A DNA stretch of 64,000 nucleotides from Candidatus Dormiibacterota bacterium. GTDB lineage: Bacteria; Chloroflexota; Dormibacteria; Aeolococcales; Bog-877. Each line of letters starts with the position of its first letter. Positions within the stretch are counted from its first letter, which is position 1. The translations under genes were made by a program, and so were the position numbers. A model generated the notes under the pieces. It did no database searches and was not told where the DNA came from. It saw only the letters and a program-made list of their open reading frames with translations. The stretch lies in contig DAHUYV010000012.1 in assembly GCA_027306885.1 (NCBI GenBank), positions 10,565 to 74,564 on the forward strand, read 5' to 3'. Below are positions 34,395 to 44,883 of this stretch, in pieces.

Positions 34395-35334
34395 TCACCT
34401 TGGAGTAGAGCCGGCCCAGGGCCTCGCTGTAGGGCCCGATCCGCCCGCTGCCCACCGTCCTCCGGTCGACCTCCACCACCGGGGTGAACTGGGCCCCGGT
34501 GCCGCAGAGGAAGACCTCGTCGGCGATGTACAGCTCGGTGCGATCGATGGAGCGCTCGACCACCGGGAGGCCGAGGTCCTCGCTCCAGAGCTGCATCAGG
34601 GTGGAGCGGGTGATCCCCTCCAGGATGTTGTCGGAGACCGACGGGGTGATCAGGGTGCCCTTGCGGACGATGAACAGGTTCTCGGCGGAGCCCTCGCTGA
34701 CGTGCCCGTCCTGGCCCAGCACGATCGCCTCGTCGTAGCCGTTCTCCACCGCCTCGCTCTTGGCCAGGGCGGCGTTGATGTAGGTGCCGGTGATCTTGGC
34801 CCGCGCTGGCGCGGCGTTGTCATCCACCCGGCGCCAGGAGGAGACCATGCAGCGCACCCCGGCGGCGGCCTCGATGTAGTGCCCGAAGGGCTGGGCGTAG
34901 ACCAGCAGGTCGTGCTCCAGGCCGTGGAGGCGGACCCCGATCTCCTCTGAGGACTTGTAGACGAGGGGCCGGATGTACACGTCGGCGTGGAAGCGGTTGG
35001 CCTGCAGCAGCTCCCGGGTCAGCGCGCAGAGCTGCTCGGTGCTCAGCGGCAGTTTCATCTGGAGGATGTGCGCGGACTGGGCCAGACGGTCGTAGTGCTC
35101 GGCGGCGCGGAAGATGTAGAGCTGGGCGCGGGCCGGGTTCCAATGGGCCCGGATCCCCTCGAAGCAGGCGGTCCCGTAGTGGAGCGCGTGGGTCATGGGA
35201 CCCAGCCCGCACTCGCGATAGGGGCGCAGCTGGCCCCGGAAGTAGACCAGGGCCGAGTCGCGCTCGAAGGGCGCCTCCGGCGCCGCCTGCTCCAGCACCC
35301 CGGTGCCGCCGCCGGTCGTCTCCGCAGCCTCCAT
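34345..35334 (-). CDS. ilvE: Branched-chain amino acid aminotransferase
   Basis: Class IV aminotransferase motifs (YGTACFEGIRA, ENLFIV, EVFLCGTGAQFTPV); start reassigned to the ATG at 35334 (GGAGGA SD). Confidence 0.85.
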   Translation of the reverse strand: MEAAETTGGGTGVLEQAAPEAPFERDSALVYFRGQLRPYRECGLGPMTHALHYGTACFEGIRAHWNPARAQLYIFRAAEHYDRLAQSAHILQMKLPLSTEQLCALTRELLQANRFHADVYIRPLVYKSSEEIGVRLHGLEHDLLVYAQPFGHYIEAAAGVRCMVSSWRRVDDNAAPARAKITGTYINAALAKSEAVENGYDEAIVLGQDGHVSEGSAENLFIVRKGTLITPSVSDNILEGITRSTLMQLWSEDLGLPVVERSIDRTELYIADEVFLCGTGAQFTPVVEVDRRTVGSGRIGPYSEALGRLYSKVIMGEVEKYREWCLPVY

Positions 35335-35437: not shown

Positions 35438-36724
35438 ATGCGAACGCCACGTCTCAATCTGGGCGTGACGCGCTGGCTGACTCCCGGCCTTCACGTCAAG
35501 CGCTGGCTGGCGGTGACGGTCGTCGCGGTGGTGGCGATCAGCCTTGGCATCAGCTACGCGCTGCGTGACTTCTACCTCCACGCCCGGCTGCCCGCCTTCA
35601 CCTACGGCCTCACCCTTCAGTTCTGGCCCCGGTGGGTGCGCGCCATCCTCTTCGCGGCGGTGGGGCTGGCGCTGCTGGGGATCGGCCTGTACAAGCTCAC
35701 ATCCTCACTGCTCAGCCCCTTCCCGGGGGGCGACAAGACGCTGGTGGAGCGGCTGTACGACTTCCGGCGGCTGAGCAAGGGGCCCCGCATCGTCGCCATC
35801 GGCGGGGGCACCGGCCTCTCCACCCTGCTGCGGGGGATCAAGCGGCACAGCGGCAACGTCACCGCCCTCGTGACCGTGGCCGACGACGGTGGCAGCTCCG
35901 GCCGGCTCCGGGAGGAGTACCGAGTGCTGCCCCCCGGCGACTTCCGTCAGTGCCTCACCGCCCTGGCCGACGTGGAGCCGCTCATGGCCGAGCTGTTCCA
36001 GTACCGCTTCGAGGAGGGCTCCCTCAGCGGCCACTCCTTCGGCAACCTCTTCATCATGGCGATGACGGCGATCACCGGCGACTTCGAGCACGCCATCCGG
36101 GAGTCCGGTCGGGTCCTGGCGGTCCGGGGCCAGATCATCCCCTCCACCCTGGAGAGCGTCACGCTGTGCGCGGTCTCCGGGGAGGACGTGCTGGTGGGCG
36201 AGTCGAACGTGCCCACCGCCAAGGGGCCGATCAGCCAGGTCTTCCTGGTCCCGGAGCACCCCCAGCTGAACCCCGAGGCGGAGTTGGCGCTGCTCAACGC
36301 CGAGATGGTGGTGGTGGGGCCGGGCAGCCTCTACACCAGCCTGCTCCCCAACCTCCTGGTGGATGGGATGGTGGAGACCCTCCGCCGCTCCCCGGCCATC
36401 AAGGTGTACGTCTGCAACGTGGCGACCCAGGCCGGCGAGACCACCAACTTCAGCGTCCACGACCACCTGGAGGTGCTCGACCAATACGTCGGCCCCGGGC
36501 TCTTCGACTTCGTGGTCGCCAACAGCAACCTGGGGCTACCGCTCTCGCCGGCGGCGGTCGAGGCCGGGATCCGCCGCGTTGCCTTCGACCGGCGCCGGCT
36601 GGAGAAGTACGACGGCCGACCGCGCTTCGTCCTGGCCGACCTGGCCAACCCCCGGCTGACCACCCACCACGACCCGGACAAGCTGGCAAAGGTGCTGATG
36701 AAGCGGGTGTGGGGGCGGGCCTGA
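35438..36724 (+). CDS. YvcK/CofD-like (UPF0052, gluconeogenesis-factor family) protein with N-terminal two-TM extension
   Basis: RIVAIGGGTGLSTLLRGIK and downstream CofD-family motifs; ~115-aa hydrophobic N-terminal extension with coding-like GC3. Confidence 0.7.
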   Translation: MRTPRLNLGVTRWLTPGLHVKRWLAVTVVAVVAISLGISYALRDFYLHARLPAFTYGLTLQFWPRWVRAILFAAVGLALLGIGLYKLTSSLLSPFPGGDKTLVERLYDFRRLSKGPRIVAIGGGTGLSTLLRGIKRHSGNVTALVTVADDGGSSGRLREEYRVLPPGDFRQCLTALADVEPLMAELFQYRFEEGSLSGHSFGNLFIMAMTAITGDFEHAIRESGRVLAVRGQIIPSTLESVTLCAVSGEDVLVGESNVPTAKGPISQVFLVPEHPQLNPEAELALLNAEMVVVGPGSLYTSLLPNLLVDGMVETLRRSPAIKVYVCNVATQAGETTNFSVHDHLEVLDQYVGPGLFDFVVANSNLGLPLSPAAVEAGIRRVAFDRRRLEKYDGRPRFVLADLANPRLTTHHDPDKLAKVLMKRVWGRA

Positions 36725-36727
36725 CCG

Positions 36728-37861
36728 CTACTTGCCGAGGAGCTGTCCCCCGGCGAGCAGGTTGCCGGGCAGCGCCGGGTCCAGCCCGACGCCGCGCTCC
36801 AGCGCCTCCCCCACCAGGTCGGTGAGCAGCTCGGCGAACCCCAGCCCACTCGCCTCCCAAAGGTAGAAGGCAAGTGACCCGGGGACGGTGTTGACCTCGT
36901 TGACGTACAGCTCTCCCCCGTCCGAGAGCAGGAAGTCCACCCGAGCGGTGCCGCCGCAGTCCAGGGCGTCGAAGGCGCGCACCGCCAGCTCCTGGATCCG
37001 GGCCCGCAGGGGGGAGGGGATCTGGGCCGGCAGCTCCCTCCGGGGGTCGCCTTTGCCCTTCCCACCCCCCTTGGGGAGCAGCTCTCCGGAGGGCGCGTAC
37101 TTGTCCCGGTACGAGAGGAATCCGGCCTCCTTGCGCGGCCGCTCCACCTCGGAGGCGCGCTCCGGGCGCCTCTTGACCGCGCAGTTGAGGTCCTCGGCCC
37201 CGGGCACCGCGGGCTCCAGGATCGCCTCCCGGTCGAAGCGCAGCGCCAGCTCGACCGCGGCGTTGAGATCTCCCGGCCCGGGGACCAAGGTGACGCCGAT
37301 GCTCGATCCGCTCCGGTTGGGCTTGACCACCAGGGGGTATCCCACCTCCAGGGCGGCGGCCTCCTCCAAGGAGGCCACCCGCTGGCCCCCGACCACCGGC
37401 AGGCCGGCCGCGCCCAGCAGGAGCTTGGAGCGGTGCTTGTCCATCGCCAGCGCCCCGCCGAGAAGGCCGGAGCCCACCTGGGGAAGGCGCAGCACGTCGG
37501 CGAGCCCGGCGAGGGTCCCGTCCTCCCCGTGGCTGCCGTGCACCAGGGGGAAGAGAAGGTCCACCGGGAGCTCCCGCGACCGGCCCAGGAGCCCGCCGCC
37601 GAGGAGCCGAAGTCGGCCGCTGCCGAGGTCGGCGACGACCTCGGCCCCCGCTTCCTCGGGCAGGGCGCCGCGGAAGCTCGCCAGCTGGGCGAAGGCCGGG
37701 TCGGTCCGCCACCGCCCCGACTTGGTCACGTAGAGCGGGACCACCTCGGCGCCGAGCTCGGTCAGCACCGGCATCACCTGACAGGCGGTGATCACGCTGA
37801 TCTCGTGCTCCGGGGAGCGCGACCCGAAGATCACCCCGATGCGCAGCCCGGCCAGGGTCAC
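36728..37861 (-). CDS. ddl: D-alanine--D-alanine ligase
   Basis: N-terminal GVIFGSRSPEHEISV and the ATP-grasp C-terminal domain; overlaps the upstream murF-like stop by 4 nt. Confidence 0.85.
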   Translation of the reverse strand: MTLAGLRIGVIFGSRSPEHEISVITACQVMPVLTELGAEVVPLYVTKSGRWRTDPAFAQLASFRGALPEEAGAEVVADLGSGRLRLLGGGLLGRSRELPVDLLFPLVHGSHGEDGTLAGLADVLRLPQVGSGLLGGALAMDKHRSKLLLGAAGLPVVGGQRVASLEEAAALEVGYPLVVKPNRSGSSIGVTLVPGPGDLNAAVELALRFDREAILEPAVPGAEDLNCAVKRRPERASEVERPRKEAGFLSYRDKYAPSGELLPKGGGKGKGDPRRELPAQIPSPLRARIQELAVRAFDALDCGGTARVDFLLSDGGELYVNEVNTVPGSLAFYLWEASGLGFAELLTDLVGEALERGVGLDPALPGNLLAGGQLLGK

Positions 37862-39438
37862 GGGCGCTCCAGGTACTGGTCGGGCAGGTCGTTCTCGAAA
37901 AGCACGACGCTGCCCGCCCCGGCCACCCGGGGGAGAACCTGCTGGGCCTCACCGAGATCGGCGACCACGCTCACCTGGGCGGCCGGGTAGCCGGCCTCCG
38001 CCAGCCCCCTCGCCACCGGTTCGGTGTGGCGGGGACCGACCAGGATCACGTGGGTGCAGACCGCCGCCGCCCGCCGGCCGAGGTCCAGCATGCTGCTCTC
38101 CTCCTCCGCCCCCAGCTCGATGTATCCCGGGGTGACCATCACCCGCCGCCGCCCGGGCAGCTCGCCCAGCAGCCGCAGGGCCTCCAGGGCGCCCTCGGGG
38201 TTGGAATTGTAGGCATCGTCGATGATGGTCACCCCGCCCTGGCGGGTCACCTCCAGCCGATGGGGGGCGCCGCGCAGGCCGGCCGCGCGCTCCACCAGCT
38301 TCTCGGGCGCCACCCCCAGCTCCACGGCGACCGCCAGGGCGCAGAGCAGATCGGAGAGGAGGTGACGGCCGAAGAGCGGGACCTCCAGCTCCAGCGCCTC
38401 GCCGCCGCTGCCCCGCAGGCGGCAGCGGGTGGTCGAGTCCAGGGTCTCCTGCCCCTCCAGCCACCAGCGGTCTCCGGGACTGCCGACCTCGACCAGGCGG
38501 GCCCGCAGGGGGGCCAGGAGGGTCTCCCGCTCCCGGATCTCCGAGGGAACCACGGCGAAGCCGTCCCCGGGGAGCGCCGCCAGCAGCTCGGACTTGGCCA
38601 CCGCGACCCGCCCCTGGCTCCCGAAGCGCTCCAGGTGCATCGGCCCCACCGCCGTCACCACCCCCACCCGGGGATGGGTGAACGAGCAGATCTCGGCGAT
38701 CTCGCCGGGTCGGTAGGCACCCATCTCCAGCACCGCAAACCGGTGCCGATCCCCCAGCCCCTCGTTGATCGCGCGGCACACCCCCAGCGTGGTGTTGAAG
38801 CTGGCCGGGGTGGCGAAGCAGCTGCCCTCAGGCTCGTCCAGGAGCTGCGCCAAGAGGACCTTGGTGGTGGTCTTGCCGTAGCTGCCGGTTATCCCGACCA
38901 CCAGGGGAGCGACGAAGGCGAGGCGCGCCTCGGCCGCCGCCATGAAGGAGCGGCGGCGGCGCAGCTCGTCAGGAGCGGCGAGCGCCGAGGCGCCGCTGAG
39001 GGCCAGGACGCAGACCAGGTCGGCCAGCCCCGGGCCCAGGACCCCCACCGGCCCCGCCCAGAAGAGGAGGAGGAGCAGGCCGAGGAGGAGGGCGCCAGCC
39101 AGCCCGGCGAGCCGTCGGGCCCGCCCCGTCCAGCGCAGCTGGGCGCGGTTGGCGAAGGGCTGGCCGAGGGCCAGGGGCGCCAGCGCGGCCCCCAGCAGCG
39201 GCAGCGGGCGCCACCCCGCCGGCACCAGGGCAAAGGCCACGCCGAGGACCAGGGCGCAGCCCAGAAGGGCAGCGGGCAGGAGGGGACGGGAGGAGAGTCG
39301 CCGGCGCAGGGTGGGCCAGAGCCGGGAGGGCAGGTACTCGTCCAGCTGGAAGAGGTAGGTCCAGCCCCGGACGCGCGGTGCGAGGGCCGCCAGCCCGACC
39401 ACCGCGAGCGCCAGCGCCTGCCAGAGTGGGATCAGCAC
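37858..39438 (-). CDS. murF: MurF-like Mur ligase (UDP-MurNAc-tripeptide--D-Ala-D-Ala ligase family) with ~185-aa polytopic membrane N-terminal domain
   Basis: GITGSYGKTTTK P-loop, DDAYNSNP motif, HRLE; the N-terminal segment is hydrophobic (LLGLLLLLFWAG...) and in-frame with ~100% GC3. Confidence 0.65.
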   Translation of the reverse strand: MLIPLWQALALAVVGLAALAPRVRGWTYLFQLDEYLPSRLWPTLRRRLSSRPLLPAALLGCALVLGVAFALVPAGWRPLPLLGAALAPLALGQPFANRAQLRWTGRARRLAGLAGALLLGLLLLLFWAGPVGVLGPGLADLVCVLALSGASALAAPDELRRRRSFMAAAEARLAFVAPLVVGITGSYGKTTTKVLLAQLLDEPEGSCFATPASFNTTLGVCRAINEGLGDRHRFAVLEMGAYRPGEIAEICSFTHPRVGVVTAVGPMHLERFGSQGRVAVAKSELLAALPGDGFAVVPSEIRERETLLAPLRARLVEVGSPGDRWWLEGQETLDSTTRCRLRGSGGEALELEVPLFGRHLLSDLLCALAVAVELGVAPEKLVERAAGLRGAPHRLEVTRQGGVTIIDDAYNSNPEGALEALRLLGELPGRRRVMVTPGYIELGAEEESSMLDLGRRAAAVCTHVILVGPRHTEPVARGLAEAGYPAAQVSVVADLGEAQQVLPRVAGAGSVVLFENDLPDQYLERP

Positions 39439-39442
39439 CGGC

Positions 39443-40240
39443 TCAGACCTTCGCGTCCATCAGGGCGTCAAACACGGCGGCGAAGCGGGCCGCCTGGTCG
39501 AGGAAGGGGAAGTGGCCGCTGCCCTCGAAGACCACCAGCTCAGCCCCGGGCACCAGCTCCTGCAGCCGCTTGGCGTTGGGCTCCAGGGGCAGCTCGGGGT
39601 CGACCGCTCCCCAGACGATCAGGGTCGGGACGGCCAGCCGGCGGGCGAGCGGGGTGAGGTCCTCGTTCACCGCCGCCACCAGGGTGGCCCGTAGCTCAGG
39701 GGAGGCGGCCCGGTAGTCAGCCGACCCGAATCGGGAGGTGAGCCACGCCTCCCAGTTGCTCGCCGCGCGCCCCGGAAGACCGCGGCCCGCGGCCCTCAGC
39801 GCCTTGAAGAGGCGGACCCTCGGTCCCGGCCGTCGCTCCGCCTCCGGCCGGATCCCCGAAGGGGCGCAGAGGAGCAACCGGTCGGGGGGGCTGCTGCCGG
39901 CGGTCAGGCGCATGGCGACCGCGCCTCCGTACGAGTGCCCCAGCAGGCTGTACCGGGGGCCGGCCACCTGGCCCAGCCAGCCGTCCAGGAGTTCGGCGTA
40001 CTTCGAGGTGGTCCAGCCCCCACCCCCGATCGGGGACTCCCCAAACCCGGGGAGGTCGGGCGCCAGCAGCCGGCGGCCGCTGCCGCTGGCCCGGAGCAGG
40101 GCGGAGTACGTGGAGGCACTGGCTCCCCAGCCGTGCAGGAGCACCACCGGAGGGTCGCCTCCCGGGCGCTCCAAATAGGAGACGGTCTGGTCCCCAACGC
40201 TCCCCTGGGCTCGTTGCGGGGCGGGCCGGACGGGCGGCAT
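39443..40240 (-). CDS. Alpha/beta hydrolase fold protein
   Basis: VVLLHGWGAS oxyanion region and GHSYGG nucleophile elbow. Confidence 0.7.
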   Translation of the reverse strand: MPPVRPAPQRAQGSVGDQTVSYLERPGGDPPVVLLHGWGASASTYSALLRASGSGRRLLAPDLPGFGESPIGGGGWTTSKYAELLDGWLGQVAGPRYSLLGHSYGGAVAMRLTAGSSPPDRLLLCAPSGIRPEAERRPGPRVRLFKALRAAGRGLPGRAASNWEAWLTSRFGSADYRAASPELRATLVAAVNEDLTPLARRLAVPTLIVWGAVDPELPLEPNAKRLQELVPGAELVVFEGSGHFPFLDQAARFAAVFDALMDAKV

Positions 40241-40328
40241 CTGAACTGGAGTCTAAGGGATGTCTCAGCCGGGCCGGTTCCGGACCTGCTCTGATGTCGA
40301 GGTGGGCCCCTCTATAATCCCGCCTGCC

Positions 40329-41030
40329 ATGGCAACTCCGGAGCGGCTGCCCGGGGCCGGTCCCCCCCGGATCCTGGTGGTCGACGATGAGGCCGCCATC
40401 CGCGACTTCATCGAGCTGGGGCTGAGCCGGGAGGGCTTCGAGGTACGCACGGCGCCGGACGGCAGGGCCGCCCTCACCGCGGTGGACCAGTTCGAGCCGG
40501 ACGTGGTGATCGTGGACGTGATGATGCCCCGGATGGATGGGCTCGAGCTCACCCGCGCGCTCGCCGGGCACCCGCGCCGGGGGGTGATCATCCTCAGCGC
40601 CCGCGACGAGACCAGAGACCGCGTGGTGGGACTGGAGCTGGGCGCTGACGACTACCTGGTCAAGCCCTTCGAGTTCGCCGAGCTGGTGGCCCGGGTGCGG
40701 TCGGTCCTGCGCCGGCGGCAGCCGGAGCAGGCAACGATCCTGCGTGCGGGTCCGCTGGTGCTGGATCGGGCCCGGCGCACCGCCGAGCTGGACGGGCGGG
40801 AGGTGGAGCTCTCCCCCCGAGAGTTCGACCTCCTGTACTTCCTCGCCCAGCACCCCGGCCAGGTGCTGGAGCGCGATCACCTCCTCAACGCCGTCTGGGG
40901 CGTCTCCTTCTACGGCGATGACAACAACCTCGAGGTGTACGTGCGGTACCTCCGGCGCAAGCTGGGCGACGACGACCGCCGGCTGATCCAGACGGTGCGC
41001 GGGGTCGGCTACCGCCTTGCCGTCCGCTGA
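40329..41030 (+). CDS. OmpR-family response regulator
   Basis: Receiver (RILVVDDEAAIRDF...VVIVDVMMPRMDG) plus winged helix (LSPREFDLLYFLAQHPGQV...GVGYRL). Confidence 0.85.
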   Translation: MATPERLPGAGPPRILVVDDEAAIRDFIELGLSREGFEVRTAPDGRAALTAVDQFEPDVVIVDVMMPRMDGLELTRALAGHPRRGVIILSARDETRDRVVGLELGADDYLVKPFEFAELVARVRSVLRRRQPEQATILRAGPLVLDRARRTAELDGREVELSPREFDLLYFLAQHPGQVLERDHLLNAVWGVSFYGDDNNLEVYVRYLRRKLGDDDRRLIQTVRGVGYRLAVR

Positions 41031-42540
41031 GCCGGGGACCACCCCCCGGGTCGTCTGGTACCGAAGCCTCCGCTGGCGGCTGACCCTCAGCTTCGTCGCC
41101 CTCCTCGCGGTGCTGCTGACGGTGGCCGGCACCGTGGAGTACTCCCTTCTCCGGGAGGCCGTGATCTCCGCCCGGGCCCAGTCGATGCGCACCACCTTCT
41201 ACGACGCGCGCTCCCTGGTCCTGCGCCAGCAGCGGCTCCGCCTGGCCAAGGGCCGGGTCCCGCTCTCGGGGCCGGCGGTGGCCCGGGAGCTGGTGAACCA
41301 GATCGCCGTGGATCAGATGTCGGCGGAGGCGTGGGGCCCGGGCCTCGCCGTCCTCGCCACCGCGGCTCCGGGCAGCCCCTCCCACCCGGCGGTGCGGACC
41401 GGGGTCTCCCTGCCCCGGCTGCCCAACTCCTCCCTTCTGGCGGCGGCCCAGTTCGACACCACCGGGCAACCCACCCTCCTCGGGTCGGGCAGCTCCGAGA
41501 CCGTGGCGATGGTCTTCCCCCTCGCCGACGCCTCGGGCACCAGCCTCGGTGCCGTGGAGGTGGTGCAATCCGCGACCTCCGTGGAGAAGGAGCTGGGCCG
41601 CGCCCGCCTGGTGCTGGGGCTGGGCGCCCTGGCGGTCCTGCTGGTCGCCCTGGGGATCGGCCTGTGGGTCACCTCCCGCACCCTGCGGAGGCTGGAGCGG
41701 CTCACCGGTGCCGCCGAGCGGCTGGGTCGGGGCGAGCTCGCCACCCGCTCGGGGTTGTCTCCCGGCGGCGACGAGGTGGGGGTGCTGGCGGGGGTGTTCG
41801 ACCAGATGGCTGAGGGGGTGGAGCACACCGTGGCGGTGCGCGAGGAGGCCACCCGGCAGATGCGTCGGTTCATCGCCGACGCCTCGCACGAGCTGCGCAC
41901 GCCGCTGACCGCGATCAAGGGCTACCTGGAGGTGCTCCAGCGGGGCGCGGCGCAGGACCCCCAGGCGGTGCAGCGGGCGCTTCCGATCATGGCCGCCGAG
42001 GCCGAGCGGATGCGTCGGCTGGTGACCGACCTCCTGGCGCTGGCCCGCGCCGACTCCTCAAGGGTGATCGAGCTGCGGGCGGTGGACCTCGGACAGCTCC
42101 TCCGGGAGTTCCTCGAGGCACGGGGCGAGGAGGCCGGGCCGGGGGTTGGCCAGGGCGTGGTGGCCGAGGCCGACCCCGATGCCCTGCTCACCGTCTGCAC
42201 CAACCTCCAGACGAACGCGGAGCGTCACGGGGAGGGCAAGGCGATCACCTGGTCCACCTTCCAGGAGGGGTCGCAGGTGGGGTTCACCTGCTCGGACCAG
42301 GGCCCGGGGATCTCCCCCGAAGACCTCCCCCACCTGTTCGAGCGCTTCTATCGCGCCGGCGAGTCCCGGTCCCGGGACGAGGGGGGCAGCGGCCTCGGCC
42401 TGGCCATCGCAAGGTCACTGGTTGAGGCCCAGGGCGGCACGGTGGAGGTGAGCTCGGAAAAGGGCCTGGGGGCCACCTTCACCGTCCGGCTCCGGGCCGC
42501 CAGGACGTCCGGCTGGGTCGCTCCGGCCCCCGCCGACTGA
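41017..42540 (+). CDS. Sensor histidine kinase (2 TM, HAMP, HisKA, HATPase_c)
   Basis: H-box ASHELRTPLTAIKGY, N/G boxes (NAERHG, DQGPGI, GSGLGLAI); overlaps the RR gene by 14 nt. Confidence 0.85.
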   Translation: MPSAEPGTTPRVVWYRSLRWRLTLSFVALLAVLLTVAGTVEYSLLREAVISARAQSMRTTFYDARSLVLRQQRLRLAKGRVPLSGPAVARELVNQIAVDQMSAEAWGPGLAVLATAAPGSPSHPAVRTGVSLPRLPNSSLLAAAQFDTTGQPTLLGSGSSETVAMVFPLADASGTSLGAVEVVQSATSVEKELGRARLVLGLGALAVLLVALGIGLWVTSRTLRRLERLTGAAERLGRGELATRSGLSPGGDEVGVLAGVFDQMAEGVEHTVAVREEATRQMRRFIADASHELRTPLTAIKGYLEVLQRGAAQDPQAVQRALPIMAAEAERMRRLVTDLLALARADSSRVIELRAVDLGQLLREFLEARGEEAGPGVGQGVVAEADPDALLTVCTNLQTNAERHGEGKAITWSTFQEGSQVGFTCSDQGPGISPEDLPHLFERFYRAGESRSRDEGGSGLGLAIARSLVEAQGGTVEVSSEKGLGATFTVRLRAARTSGWVAPAPAD

Positions 42541-42860: not shown

Positions 42861-44033
42861 TCAGCCGGAGGGCCGCTCCCACCCGGGACCCTCGAGTCCT
42901 CCCCGGGCGCCGCCCACCTGCCCCTCCAGCCAGCTCCGCACCCCGGCGGGCTGGTCCTGGACCAGCCGGGGCCAGCTCCGACGCCAGCGCCGGGGCGGGA
43001 CCACCCACAGCCAGCTGGGGTCCAGGCGGGCCCCGCGCATGACCTTGGCGTGCCAGCTGGCCAGCCCCAGGTGCAGGCTTCGGGCCCCGGTGCGGATGCC
43101 GTGCTCCAGGGGCAGGTAGAAGGCGAGGTTGAAGTAGGCGGCGGCGTCGGCGACCTCCGGGTAGTCGAAGCCGGCGGCGCGCCCGTACAGGGTGTCGCCC
43201 CAGCGGTAGAAGAGGGTGAAGCCGACCGGCCGATCGCGGCGCCGGCAGATCAGCACCCAGCTGCAGGAGTCGAGCTGCTCGGCCTGGCGGCGGAACTCGC
43301 CCTCGAGCTCCGAAACCGAGGAGCGGTGACCGTACTTCGCCTGGAGCGGGGCCGCCAGGCGGGCCAGCTCCTCCCAGCACTCCGAGAGCCTCGCCTCGGC
43401 GACCGAGAGGGAGCTGGAGGAGAAGCGGGCCCGCTCCCGGCGCACGAAGTGCCGCCGGGAGGGGCTGAGGGAGGCCAGGTAGCCATCGAAGTCACTGAAG
43501 TCGATGTCCAGGGAGGCGCTTCCAGAGCCGAGCATGACCTGATCGCGCACCCCGAGGGCGTCGGCCAGCTGCGCCGCCGCCCTTGAAGTCAGCCACATCG
43601 CGGCCGAGCTGGCACAACCGCCCTTGCGCCCCAGCCGAAGCGCCGCCCGCAGCATCGGGCGAAGGACCCTTGCCGGGTGGTCCCGGGCGCGGGGATGGAT
43701 CAGCCACTCGTTCACGTACCCCGAGCGCGTCCCGACAAACATGGTCGGCCGCCACTCCGAAGGGGCGCTCCGGTCGCCGACGACCCAACCCCCGCCGATC
43801 GCCACCGGGTCGTAGTTGTCGAGAGCGGGGGCGGGGCGGCCATCCCAGATGTAGCAGGGCAGTGCCCCGACCAGCTTGGAGTCCCCCTCATACGCCAGGA
43901 GATATCGCGCCTCGATGGCCGGGTCGGGCTCGACCGCGAGCAGGTAGGGGCGGCTGACCATGAGGCCGGCCCCGCTGGTCAGCTCCTCGAAGGCAAGCTG
44001 GTCCACCGTCCCCAGACGGTCGACCACCTCCAC
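42861..44033 (-). CDS. FemAB-like GNAT (peptidoglycan-bridge-formation-like acyltransferase fold, DUF482/Acetyltransf_6-like)
   Basis: Two-lobed GNAT-like sequence (YLLAYEGDSKLVGALPCYIW..., FTLFYRWGDTLYGRAAGFDY); start set at the GTG at 44033, just downstream of the ABC-2 permease stop. Confidence 0.55.
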   Translation of the reverse strand: MEVVDRLGTVDQLAFEELTSGAGLMVSRPYLLAVEPDPAIEARYLLAYEGDSKLVGALPCYIWDGRPAPALDNYDPVAIGGGWVVGDRSAPSEWRPTMFVGTRSGYVNEWLIHPRARDHPARVLRPMLRAALRLGRKGGCASSAAMWLTSRAAAQLADALGVRDQVMLGSGSASLDIDFSDFDGYLASLSPSRRHFVRRERARFSSSSLSVAEARLSECWEELARLAAPLQAKYGHRSSVSELEGEFRRQAEQLDSCSWVLICRRRDRPVGFTLFYRWGDTLYGRAAGFDYPEVADAAAYFNLAFYLPLEHGIRTGARSLHLGLASWHAKVMRGARLDPSWLWVVPPRRWRRSWPRLVQDQPAGVRSWLEGQVGGARGGLEGPGWERPSG

Positions 44034-44061
44034 GCGGACCCGGGGCGGCCGAGTCCCCGCC

Positions 44062-44883
44062 TCAGAGCCGGTCGAAGGCACCGGTGCGCCGGCCCGAGCG
44101 CTCGAAGTGGCGGAAGAGCAGGTAGGCGAAGGCCGCCCAGCAGCAGCCCACCAGCAGCTCCAAGAGGATGTCGGAGACCGCGGCGCCACCGCCCCGGCCC
44201 GCCGCCAGCAACCGGCCGGCGGCGATCCCGTGGGTGAGCGGGAGGAATTGGGCGAGCCCCCGGACCGCGCCGGGGAGCTGGCTCAGAGGCACCTCCACCC
44301 CGCAGACCAGCAGGACCGCGAAGTAGGCGATGTTGGAGATGAGGAAGACGTCGCGCACCCGGAGCCCCACCGACCCCAGCGCCATGCCAAAGCCGGTGCA
44401 GGAGCCGGCGGTGACCAGCACCGTCAGCAACAGCATCGGCAGCTCCGCCGGCGCCGGCCGGAAGCCGAGGATGAGCGCCGACACCAGGAACCCGAAGCAG
44501 GTCGTCTGGAAGCCGGTGATCAGGACCGGCAGCCCGCGCCCGAGGAAGACCGCCAGGCGGTTGCTGGGGGTGGCCAGGATCGGGCTGAGGGTCTGGAACT
44601 GGCGCTCGTTGGAGATCGCCATCGTCATGCCGTAGATGCCCGACATGCTGCAGATCTGAATCGAGTTCCCGACCACGAAGAAGGCCGTCGACCCGACCCC
44701 CGCGGCCCTTCCCAGGTAGACGAAGAAGAGGATCTGGAAGAGCGGTGCGGCCAGCATGGTGGGCACGTACTGCCAGGGGTTGATCCAGTAGAAGAGGGCT
44801 CGGTAGGAGATCAACCCGCCGATGAGGAAGACCCGCCAGAAGTGGCCCCGCGAGCCCGCTTCGGTGGCGGCCAGGGCGCTCAC
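44062..44883 (-). CDS. ABC-2 type transporter permease
   Basis: 6 TM helices, ABC2_membrane features. Confidence 0.75.
   Translation of the reverse strand: MSALAATEAGSRGHFWRVFLIGGLISYRALFYWINPWQYVPTMLAAPLFQILFFVYLGRAAGVGSTAFFVVGNSIQICSMSGIYGMTMAISNERQFQTLSPILATPSNRLAVFLGRGLPVLITGFQTTCFGFLVSALILGFRPAPAELPMLLLTVLVTAGSCTGFGMALGSVGLRVRDVFLISNIAYFAVLLVCGVEVPLSQLPGAVRGLAQFLPLTHGIAAGRLLAAGRGGGAAVSDILLELLVGCCWAAFAYLLFRHFERSGRRTGAFDRL

Follow-up and report, generated by a model that had tools for sequence, protein, structure and literature searches.

Can a ligase of the MurF type be built into the membrane, and what would it do there? MurC to MurF are usually presented as soluble enzymes of the cytoplasm, and a direct hand-over of their product to MraY has long been debated. 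The question is raised by a 64,000-nucleotide (nt) stretch of Candidatus Dormiibacterota bacterium DNA (assembly GCA_027306885.1, contig DAHUYV010000012.1, positions 10,565 to 74,564 of the forward strand), which we call the window and whose own positions are used below. An earlier note, made from the letters alone, had assigned positions 36728-39438 to a MurF-like ligase with a polytopic membrane N-terminus. We found that the interval holds two minus-strand genes, one for a Mur ligase and one for a D-alanine--D-alanine ligase (Ddl), and that 4 nt separate the ligase start from the stop of an alpha/beta hydrolase gene. The order is murF then ddl, with the hydrolase gene upstream, and not the ddl-murF order given in the note. 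The ligase stop TGA and the ddl start GTG share 4 nt (GTGA), and all three reading frames of what we call the cassette either abut or overlap by 4 nt. Its features are given here by position in the window, with lengths and residues in amino acids (aa):

39443-40240, minus strand: alpha/beta hydrolase, cassette gene 1 (265 aa from an ATG; Pfam Abhydrolase_6 and Abhydrolase_1)
37858-39438, minus strand: membrane-embedded MurF-subfamily ligase, cassette gene 2 (526 aa, GTG start)
38905-39438, minus strand: N-terminal membrane domain of the ligase, aa 1-178, predicted to have five transmembrane helices and a cytoplasmic stalk helix (139-176)
39334-39348, minus strand: first N-domain motif, QLDEY (Q[LQ]xxY), in the first cytoplasmic loop; Q31 and Y35 invariant
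39109-39129, minus strand: second N-domain motif, TGRARRL (KKPLVxTxR[AV]KRL), in the second cytoplasmic loop; T104, R106 and R109 invariant
38932-38973, minus strand: third N-domain motif, P[VLI]ExxIN...A, at the start of the stalk helix; P156 and A169 invariant
38326-38892, minus strand: Mur ligase central (ATP-binding) domain, PF08245, aa 183-371
38866-38886, minus strand: P-loop GSYGKTT, aa 185-191; G185, K189 and T190 invariant
37897-38262, minus strand: Mur ligase C-terminal domain, PF02875, aa 393-514
38197-38220, minus strand: MurF-type motif DDAYNSNP, aa 407-414, aligning to DDSYNAN of MurF
37873-37899, minus strand: acidic C-terminal signature FENDLPDQY, specific to the family; F514 to D520 invariant
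36728-37861, minus strand: DdlA-type D-alanine--D-alanine ligase, cassette gene 3 (377 aa; Pfam Dala_Dala_lig_N and Dala_Dala_lig_C)

The ligase and its membrane N-terminus are a genuine single gene. The reading frame is continuous, the NCBI gene call is identical (526 aa), the GC content at third codon positions (GC3) is high throughout, and full-length homologues align from residue 1, among them Dormibacteria proteins of 55-75% identity. GC3 ranges from 0.87 to 1.00 in 30-codon blocks across the ligase, N-terminus included; the figure of ~100% given earlier was slightly too high, while the high GC3 itself stands. For the wider comparison, relatives were sought in one genome per GTDB species, which yielded at least 577, and locus counts below refer to the best 80 loci among them, examined by tblastn with the window's neighbouring proteins. 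An account in which the long open reading frame is an artefact, with the true ligase start at M166 and the hydrophobic part upstream being a separate gene or non-coding read-through, could draw on the in-frame ATG at residue 166 and on the habit of high-GC genomes of yielding long spurious reading frames. We regard it as extremely improbable. At least 80 loci, low-GC ones included, conserve the first 178 aa in frame, with invariant residues and a length-conserved position of the P-loop, and GC3 is uniform. The same ~180-aa domain, in frame and with the same motifs, occurs in low-GC Clostridia and Bacteroidales, so it is neither chance nor a high-GC artefact. Residues 139-176 are modelled as one confident helix that runs across M166, which is itself not conserved. 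Together with the conservation of the N-domain, this helix rules out the internal start (MAAAEARLAF) or frameshift that the earlier note had considered, and bears out its claim that the membrane part and the ligase are one coding sequence.

The membrane domain was examined by hydropathy, structure prediction and charge distribution. Five hydrophobic segments were found at approximately residues 1-21, 53-75, 78-91, 110-130 and 133-155, and all of them are modelled by AlphaFold2 as helices with a predicted local distance difference test (pLDDT) score of 86-97. The model as a whole has a pLDDT of 90.7, the isolated membrane domain 92.8; its helices span residues 5-32, 37-50, 53-71, 78-91, 105-127, 130-137 and 139-176, with zero strands before residue 179. 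Across 25 family members spanning diverse phyla, the mean number of lysines plus arginines alternates from 0.0 at the N-terminus through 5.0 in loop 1, 0.2 in loop 2, 7.3 in loop 3 and 0.2 in loop 4 to 4.8 in the stalk, which by the positive-inside rule gives an external N-terminus and a cytoplasmic ligase. The protein is thus predicted to have a five-helix membrane domain with its N-terminus outside and its C-terminus inside, and a stalk helix that would anchor the ligase domains at the cytoplasmic face.

In the same 25 proteins, from Dormibacteria to Clostridia and Bacteroidales, residues Q31, Y35, T104, R106, R109, P156 and A169 are invariant. They fall in three motifs (hHxhQ[LQ]xxY, KKPLVxTxR[AV]KRL and P[VLI]ExxIN), all of which face the cytoplasm in the predicted topology. 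Most of the 80 loci have Q[LQ]xxY at around aa 25-40, and most have TxRxxR[LIM]. Because polar residues are invariant, the domain is probably more than an anchor. Pfam searches of the 25 N-domains at E<=1 gave no family in common, and neither the membrane domain nor the subfamily is covered by any Pfam or NCBIfam model. The domain was also sought in other architectures, with four matches from a single-sequence search and one from a profile search, both of which are too insensitive for a hydrophobic domain.

Which Mur ligase is this? In Pfam, Mur_ligase_M (PF08245, 100.5 bits) and Mur_ligase_C (PF02875, 52.6 bits) both score above cut-off, while PF01225, the model for MurF domain 1, finds no match in the ligase. 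With no Pfam match at the N-terminus and five hydrophobic segments there, the description of a hydrophobic N-terminus in place of the usual domain is upheld. In canonical MurF, domain 1 holds the uridine diphosphate (UDP) end of UDP-N-acetylmuramoyl (UDP-MurNAc)-tripeptide. Alignment to the E. coli and P. aeruginosa enzymes begins only at query residue 169-176, which corresponds to MurF residue 94-98, so domain 1 is without a counterpart. The model is all-helical ahead of residue 179, and the alpha/beta domain is therefore missing altogether, not simply diverged. Compared with E. coli MurF, domain 1 (~1-95) has been replaced by the 178-aa five-helix membrane domain.

The rest of the protein is of MurF type. 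The central and C-terminal domains resemble those of canonical MurF (E. coli 1GG4, P. aeruginosa 4CVK, A. baumannii 4QDI) at 29-36% identity over ~300-340 aa, sharing the P-loop, conserved residues of the central domain and the DD[AS]YN[AS]N motif. All 77 homologues compared have G185, K189, T190, E238, H268 and K282, and D407, D408, Y410, N411, N413 and P414 of DDAYNSNP are invariant in the family; both this motif and the GxxGKTT P-loop lie where the earlier note had seen them, at aa 407-414 and aa 185-191. The top NCBIfam models are all MurF (201.1 bits), with MurD at 72, MurC at 51 and MurE also far behind. Models of the cyanophycin and poly-glutamate type score near zero, and a system of either kind was rejected. 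The best sequence matches in the PDB are the MurF entries 4cvk and 1gg4, and canonical MurF also gives the best structural matches. In a neighbour-joining tree, the membrane forms group with canonical MurF in 100/100 bootstraps and with one another in 100/100. The membrane forms are a monophyletic clade that is sister to canonical MurF and apart from MurC, MurD and MurE. By sequence, fold and phylogeny the ligase lies nearer to MurF than to MurC, MurD, MurE, Mpl, MurT, FolC or CphA. The suggestion of a distinct Mur-ligase paralogue was partly right, in that this is a separate subfamily of MurF, scoring below the TIGR01143 cut-off. Database labels agree: RefSeq calls the proteins of cultured Tissierellia MurF, and the family is labelled either MurF or 'Mur ligase family protein'. 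Two features set the membrane form apart from canonical MurF besides its score and its N-terminus, namely its pairing with an alpha/beta hydrolase and its end, ENDLPDxY. The signature ENDLPDx[YF] closes the protein in nearly all of the 80 loci, with F514 to D520 invariant in the 77 homologues, and the ENDLPD signature, used as a search pattern, recovered the family.

Several known systems offer partial parallels. CapB/PgsB, the poly-gamma-glutamate synthase, is an enzyme of the Mur-ligase fold that is active at the membrane. The soluble MurT pairs with a glutaminase in the MurT/GatD lipid II amidotransferase; the sequence similarity of our ligase to it is marginal (NCBIfam E 0.0016), and MurT does not group with MurF. 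The Bacillus-type ddl-murF operon is, like the cassette, a stand-alone pair of Ddl and MurF outside the division and cell wall (dcw) cluster, so that in both cases murF adjoins ddl. In the B. thuringiensis record, however, ddl precedes murF, the MurF is a soluble protein that has domain 1 (P-loop at aa 113), and a hydrolase gene is lacking. A survey of Mur chimeras (PMC10214165) lists MurD-FtsW and MurE-MurF fusions and no membrane MurF. Those chimeras likewise join a ligase to another cell-wall protein, and since the partner in MurD-FtsW is polytopic, they are a precedent for a membrane-tethered Mur ligase (PMC10214165). They differ in keeping all three ligase domains alongside a known enzyme, whereas the membrane MurF has one domain replaced, by a membrane part that matches no known family. 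Full-text searches of the papers within reach turned up neither a membrane MurF nor a hydrolase-MurF-Ddl cassette; the sequences themselves are already in databases, and it is the membrane domain, the subfamily and the cassette for which we found no model or description.

The two partner genes accompany the ligase in most loci. A hydrolase gene lies upstream on the same strand in 70 of the 80 loci and a ddl downstream on the same strand in 71 (median gap 32 nt). The complete set of hydrolase, membrane MurF and DdlA-type Ddl is present in 64, and several of the exceptions are contig ends. Apart from these three, the neighbouring genes are not conserved from phylum to phylum. The hydrolase matches Abhydrolase_6 (98 bits) and Abhydrolase_1 (71 bits) in Pfam; in NCBIfam it falls into no specific family and has only generic esterase, lipase and C-C hydrolase relatives. 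Across 73 cassette homologues its triad is kept (S103 100%, D214 98%, H243 98%), as is an HGWG oxyanion motif, and there is a family-specific motif S173-x-D175-Y176. Its start is uncertain. The ATG at 40240 gives 265 aa and leaves merely 19 nt to the response-regulator reading frame as listed; the NCBI call gives 234 aa from near 40147 and would remove the conserved N-terminal positions G27 and 29.

The Ddl has ATP-grasp Ddl domains; it scores just below the cut-offs of the NCBIfam Ddl subfamily models (244.6 against 262, and 230.3 against 245.65), and its best PDB match is DdlA 3q1k (178.8 bits). Among the 73 cassette homologues, E18, K254-Y255, R307, D309, E322, N324 and S329 are 97-100% conserved; K254-Y255 (98-100%) are the counterparts of K215-Y216 of DdlB. 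A tyrosine in the omega loop of a Ddl marks synthesis of D-alanyl-D-alanine (D-Ala-D-Ala) rather than D-alanyl-D-lactate (D-Ala-D-Lac). Judged by its sequence, the neighbouring Ddl keeps the residues expected for D-Ala-D-Ala synthesis, and because the omega-loop tyrosine is conserved, a vancomycin-type ligase making D-Ala-D-Lac or D-Ala-D-Ser (D-alanyl-D-serine) was ruled out. A second, short (~319 aa) Ddl-like gene directly follows the long DdlA-type ligase in loci L083 (12923-13882), L004, L008 and L009, and again in L020, L032, L037, L040 and L049, which are Actinomycetota-like and Solirubrobacterales loci.

What the ligase does is best approached through its genomic setting. Five Poribacteria loci have, by Pfam and tblastn, the order mraW - ftsI - murE - [hydrolase - membrane MurF - ddl] - mraY, and none of the five has another murF between murE and mraY. 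Lying between murE and mraY as murF does in E. coli, the cassette fills the murF slot of the E. coli dcw order. The genes murD - ftsW - murG - murC continue in four of the five, while tblastn did not find them in L025. In L015, ftsQ directly follows murC, without the ddl that is found there in E. coli, so the cluster's ddl, too, appears to come from the cassette there. In one Clostridiaceae locus no murF comes after murE, and the cassette is followed by an Asp/Glu-family racemase gene, possibly a glutamate racemase. The 10 kb around each of the 80 cassettes showed no canonical murF, and the 64-kb window has no further Mur ligase or mraY and no dcw genes. On a Chloroflexota chromosome, the cassette encloses a 326-aa MraY-type gene (L062, 11107-12087) between its membrane MurF and its ddl; this gene scores 186.5 bits against TIGR00445 (cut-off 192) and would be either that genome's MraY or a dedicated paralogue.

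We consider it fairly probable that the protein is a membrane-held D-Ala-D-Ala-adding enzyme, fed by the co-transcribed Ddl and delivering its product beside MraY, and that it serves this genome as its housekeeping MurF. On this proposal the adjacent Ddl would make D-Ala-D-Ala; the membrane MurF, using ATP, would attach it, at the surface of the membrane, to the MurNAc-tripeptide precursor; and the pentapeptide product would be let go next to MraY, to be turned into lipid I. The conserved cytoplasmic motifs could possibly bind the diphosphate of the precursor. Enzymatic activity, the identity of the acceptor, the hand-over to MraY and the status of sole MurF are all things that we infer.

Several points weigh against this proposal. 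The ligase reaches 201.1 bits where TIGR01143 has its cut-off at 288.6, and it covers profile positions 59-403 of 418. With domain 1 lost, it becomes doubtful whether, and in what way, UDP is recognised. A simple MurF role would also leave unexplained a hydrolase that is constant and, from its motifs, looks active. The terms 'housekeeping' and 'only MurF' would carry over synteny from another phylum, the Ddl is at least duplicated in the Actinomycetota-like loci, and the tree of the membrane clade disagrees with the species tree.

This last point concerns how the family is spread. The best 80 loci include Clostridia/Tissierellia, Bacteroidales, Actinomycetota (Solirubrobacterales, Patulibacter among them, also being represented), Chloroflexota, Poribacteria, Acidobacteriota (Bryobacteraceae), Omnitrophota, Rhodothermales and Thiomargarita. 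Cultured carriers include [Clostridium] ultunense, Sedimentibacter acidaminivorans, Peptoniphilus stercorisuis and Sporosalibacterium faouarense. The family occurs patchily across phyla, and the tree groups Poribacteria with Tissierellia, gut Bacteroidales with Lachnospiraceae, and Thiomargarita with Pelotomaculum. As the membrane-clade tree cuts across the species tree in this way, the cassette has moved laterally, and repeatedly, including into the Poribacteria dcw cluster. Lateral transfer of this kind would be more typical of accessory modules, which is a further point against a housekeeping enzyme. On the main rival reading, the cassette would be an accessory, laterally acquired second route that stands beside a canonical soluble MurF and Ddl and comes into use in special circumstances, for instance under envelope stress, in the presence of compounds that inhibit Ddl, MurF or MraY, or in a certain phase of growth. 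The patchy spread, the conflict between the trees, the second ddl that immediately follows the cassette in the Actinomycetota-like and Solirubrobacterales loci, and the divergent MtrAB/WalRK-like two-component system beside the Dormibacteria cassette all speak for such a route. Yet in Poribacteria the cassette replaces murF within the dcw cluster itself, and L015 has no ddl between murC and ftsQ; canonical murF is missing from the 10 kb around all 80 cassettes; and the family is on 0 of 72,556 plasmids, where the matches are canonical murF genes only. We give the accessory route a lesser chance, though one that deserves consideration.

Two of the loci examined have other arrangements. On a 2.5-kb Muribaculaceae contig (L039, 38-2489), the membrane MurF is followed by murE, not ddl. 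A plasmid of Streptomyces sp. NBC_01243 (L086, 1008-5092) has a canonical murF with a divergent ddl, a threonine/serine dehydratase and a peptidase, and from its gene content looks like a separate precursor-remodelling cluster, possibly of the glycopeptide-resistance type.

The membrane domain allows a further reading, in which it is the acceptor that differs. The enzyme would then act on a membrane-bound acceptor, either undecaprenyl-diphosphate-linked MurNAc-tripeptide or another lipid-linked or membrane-bound carboxylate, held by the arginine-rich site. This would fit the complete replacement of domain 1, the invariant Q, Y, T, R and R in cytoplasmic loops at the membrane surface, and an analogy with MurT. 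Against it, membrane topology would by itself lead one to expect arginines in cytoplasmic loops, the sister group of the ligase is canonical MurF and not MurT, and the position of the cassette upstream of mraY, where murF normally lies, fits the normal order of reactions. We judge a membrane-bound acceptor to be quite unlikely. A more elaborate variant would make the membrane domain a substrate-binding module and the whole cassette a membrane-bound machine that completes the stem peptide on lipid-linked MurNAc-tripeptide or within a fixed complex with MraY. The hydrolase would be obligatory there and would add a third activity, such as product editing or release. To us this seems rather doubtful, and an enzyme that adds D-Ala-D-Ala to the ordinary precursor is the reading we prefer.

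Around the Dormibacteria cassette, the flanking genes are envelope-related: an MtrAB/WalRK-like two-component system, a YvcK-family gene and a gene for a FemAB-like protein. YvcK is a UDP-N-acetylglucosamine-binding factor of the cell envelope. The YvcK-family gene (35438-36724, plus strand, in a reading frame that opens at 35303) is convergent with ddl and scores 322.7 bits against TIGR01826 (cut-off 196). Its product has an N-terminal extension of ~115 aa with two hydrophobic segments, of a kind that is not known from characterised YvcK proteins, and would be, beside the ligase, another cell-wall protein that is normally soluble and here has a membrane N-terminus. This neighbour is kept in the related Dormibacteria loci L001 (92% identical), L081 and L088. 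On the other side and divergent from the cassette are an OmpR-type response regulator (40260-41030, plus strand) and a HAMP histidine kinase (41017-42540, plus strand). The pair resembles the cell-wall regulators MtrAB and WalRK, at scores below the cut-offs, has the same layout in L081 and L088, and may control the cassette. Just past it, at 42861-44189 on the minus strand, is the FemAB_like gene (PF04339, 47.7 bits, peptidoglycan biosynthesis/recognition).

What the locus reveals is a MurF subfamily that has traded its UDP-binding domain for an integral membrane domain and that is carried by at least 577 genomes, abundant gut Clostridia and Bacteroidales among them. If the membrane form is a working MurF, the contacts made by the UDP domain would be dispensable or replaceable in a Mur ligase, and MurF inhibitors aimed at domain-1 contacts may fail for these organisms. 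Surveys with hidden Markov models that apply the TIGR01143 cut-off would score the carriers as lacking MurF. If instead the membrane domain is a substrate-binding module, a textbook cytosolic step would move to the membrane in many bacterial lineages. As a working MurF, the family would be natural evidence for the completion of the precursor at the membrane, and would offer a system for probing channelling to MraY.

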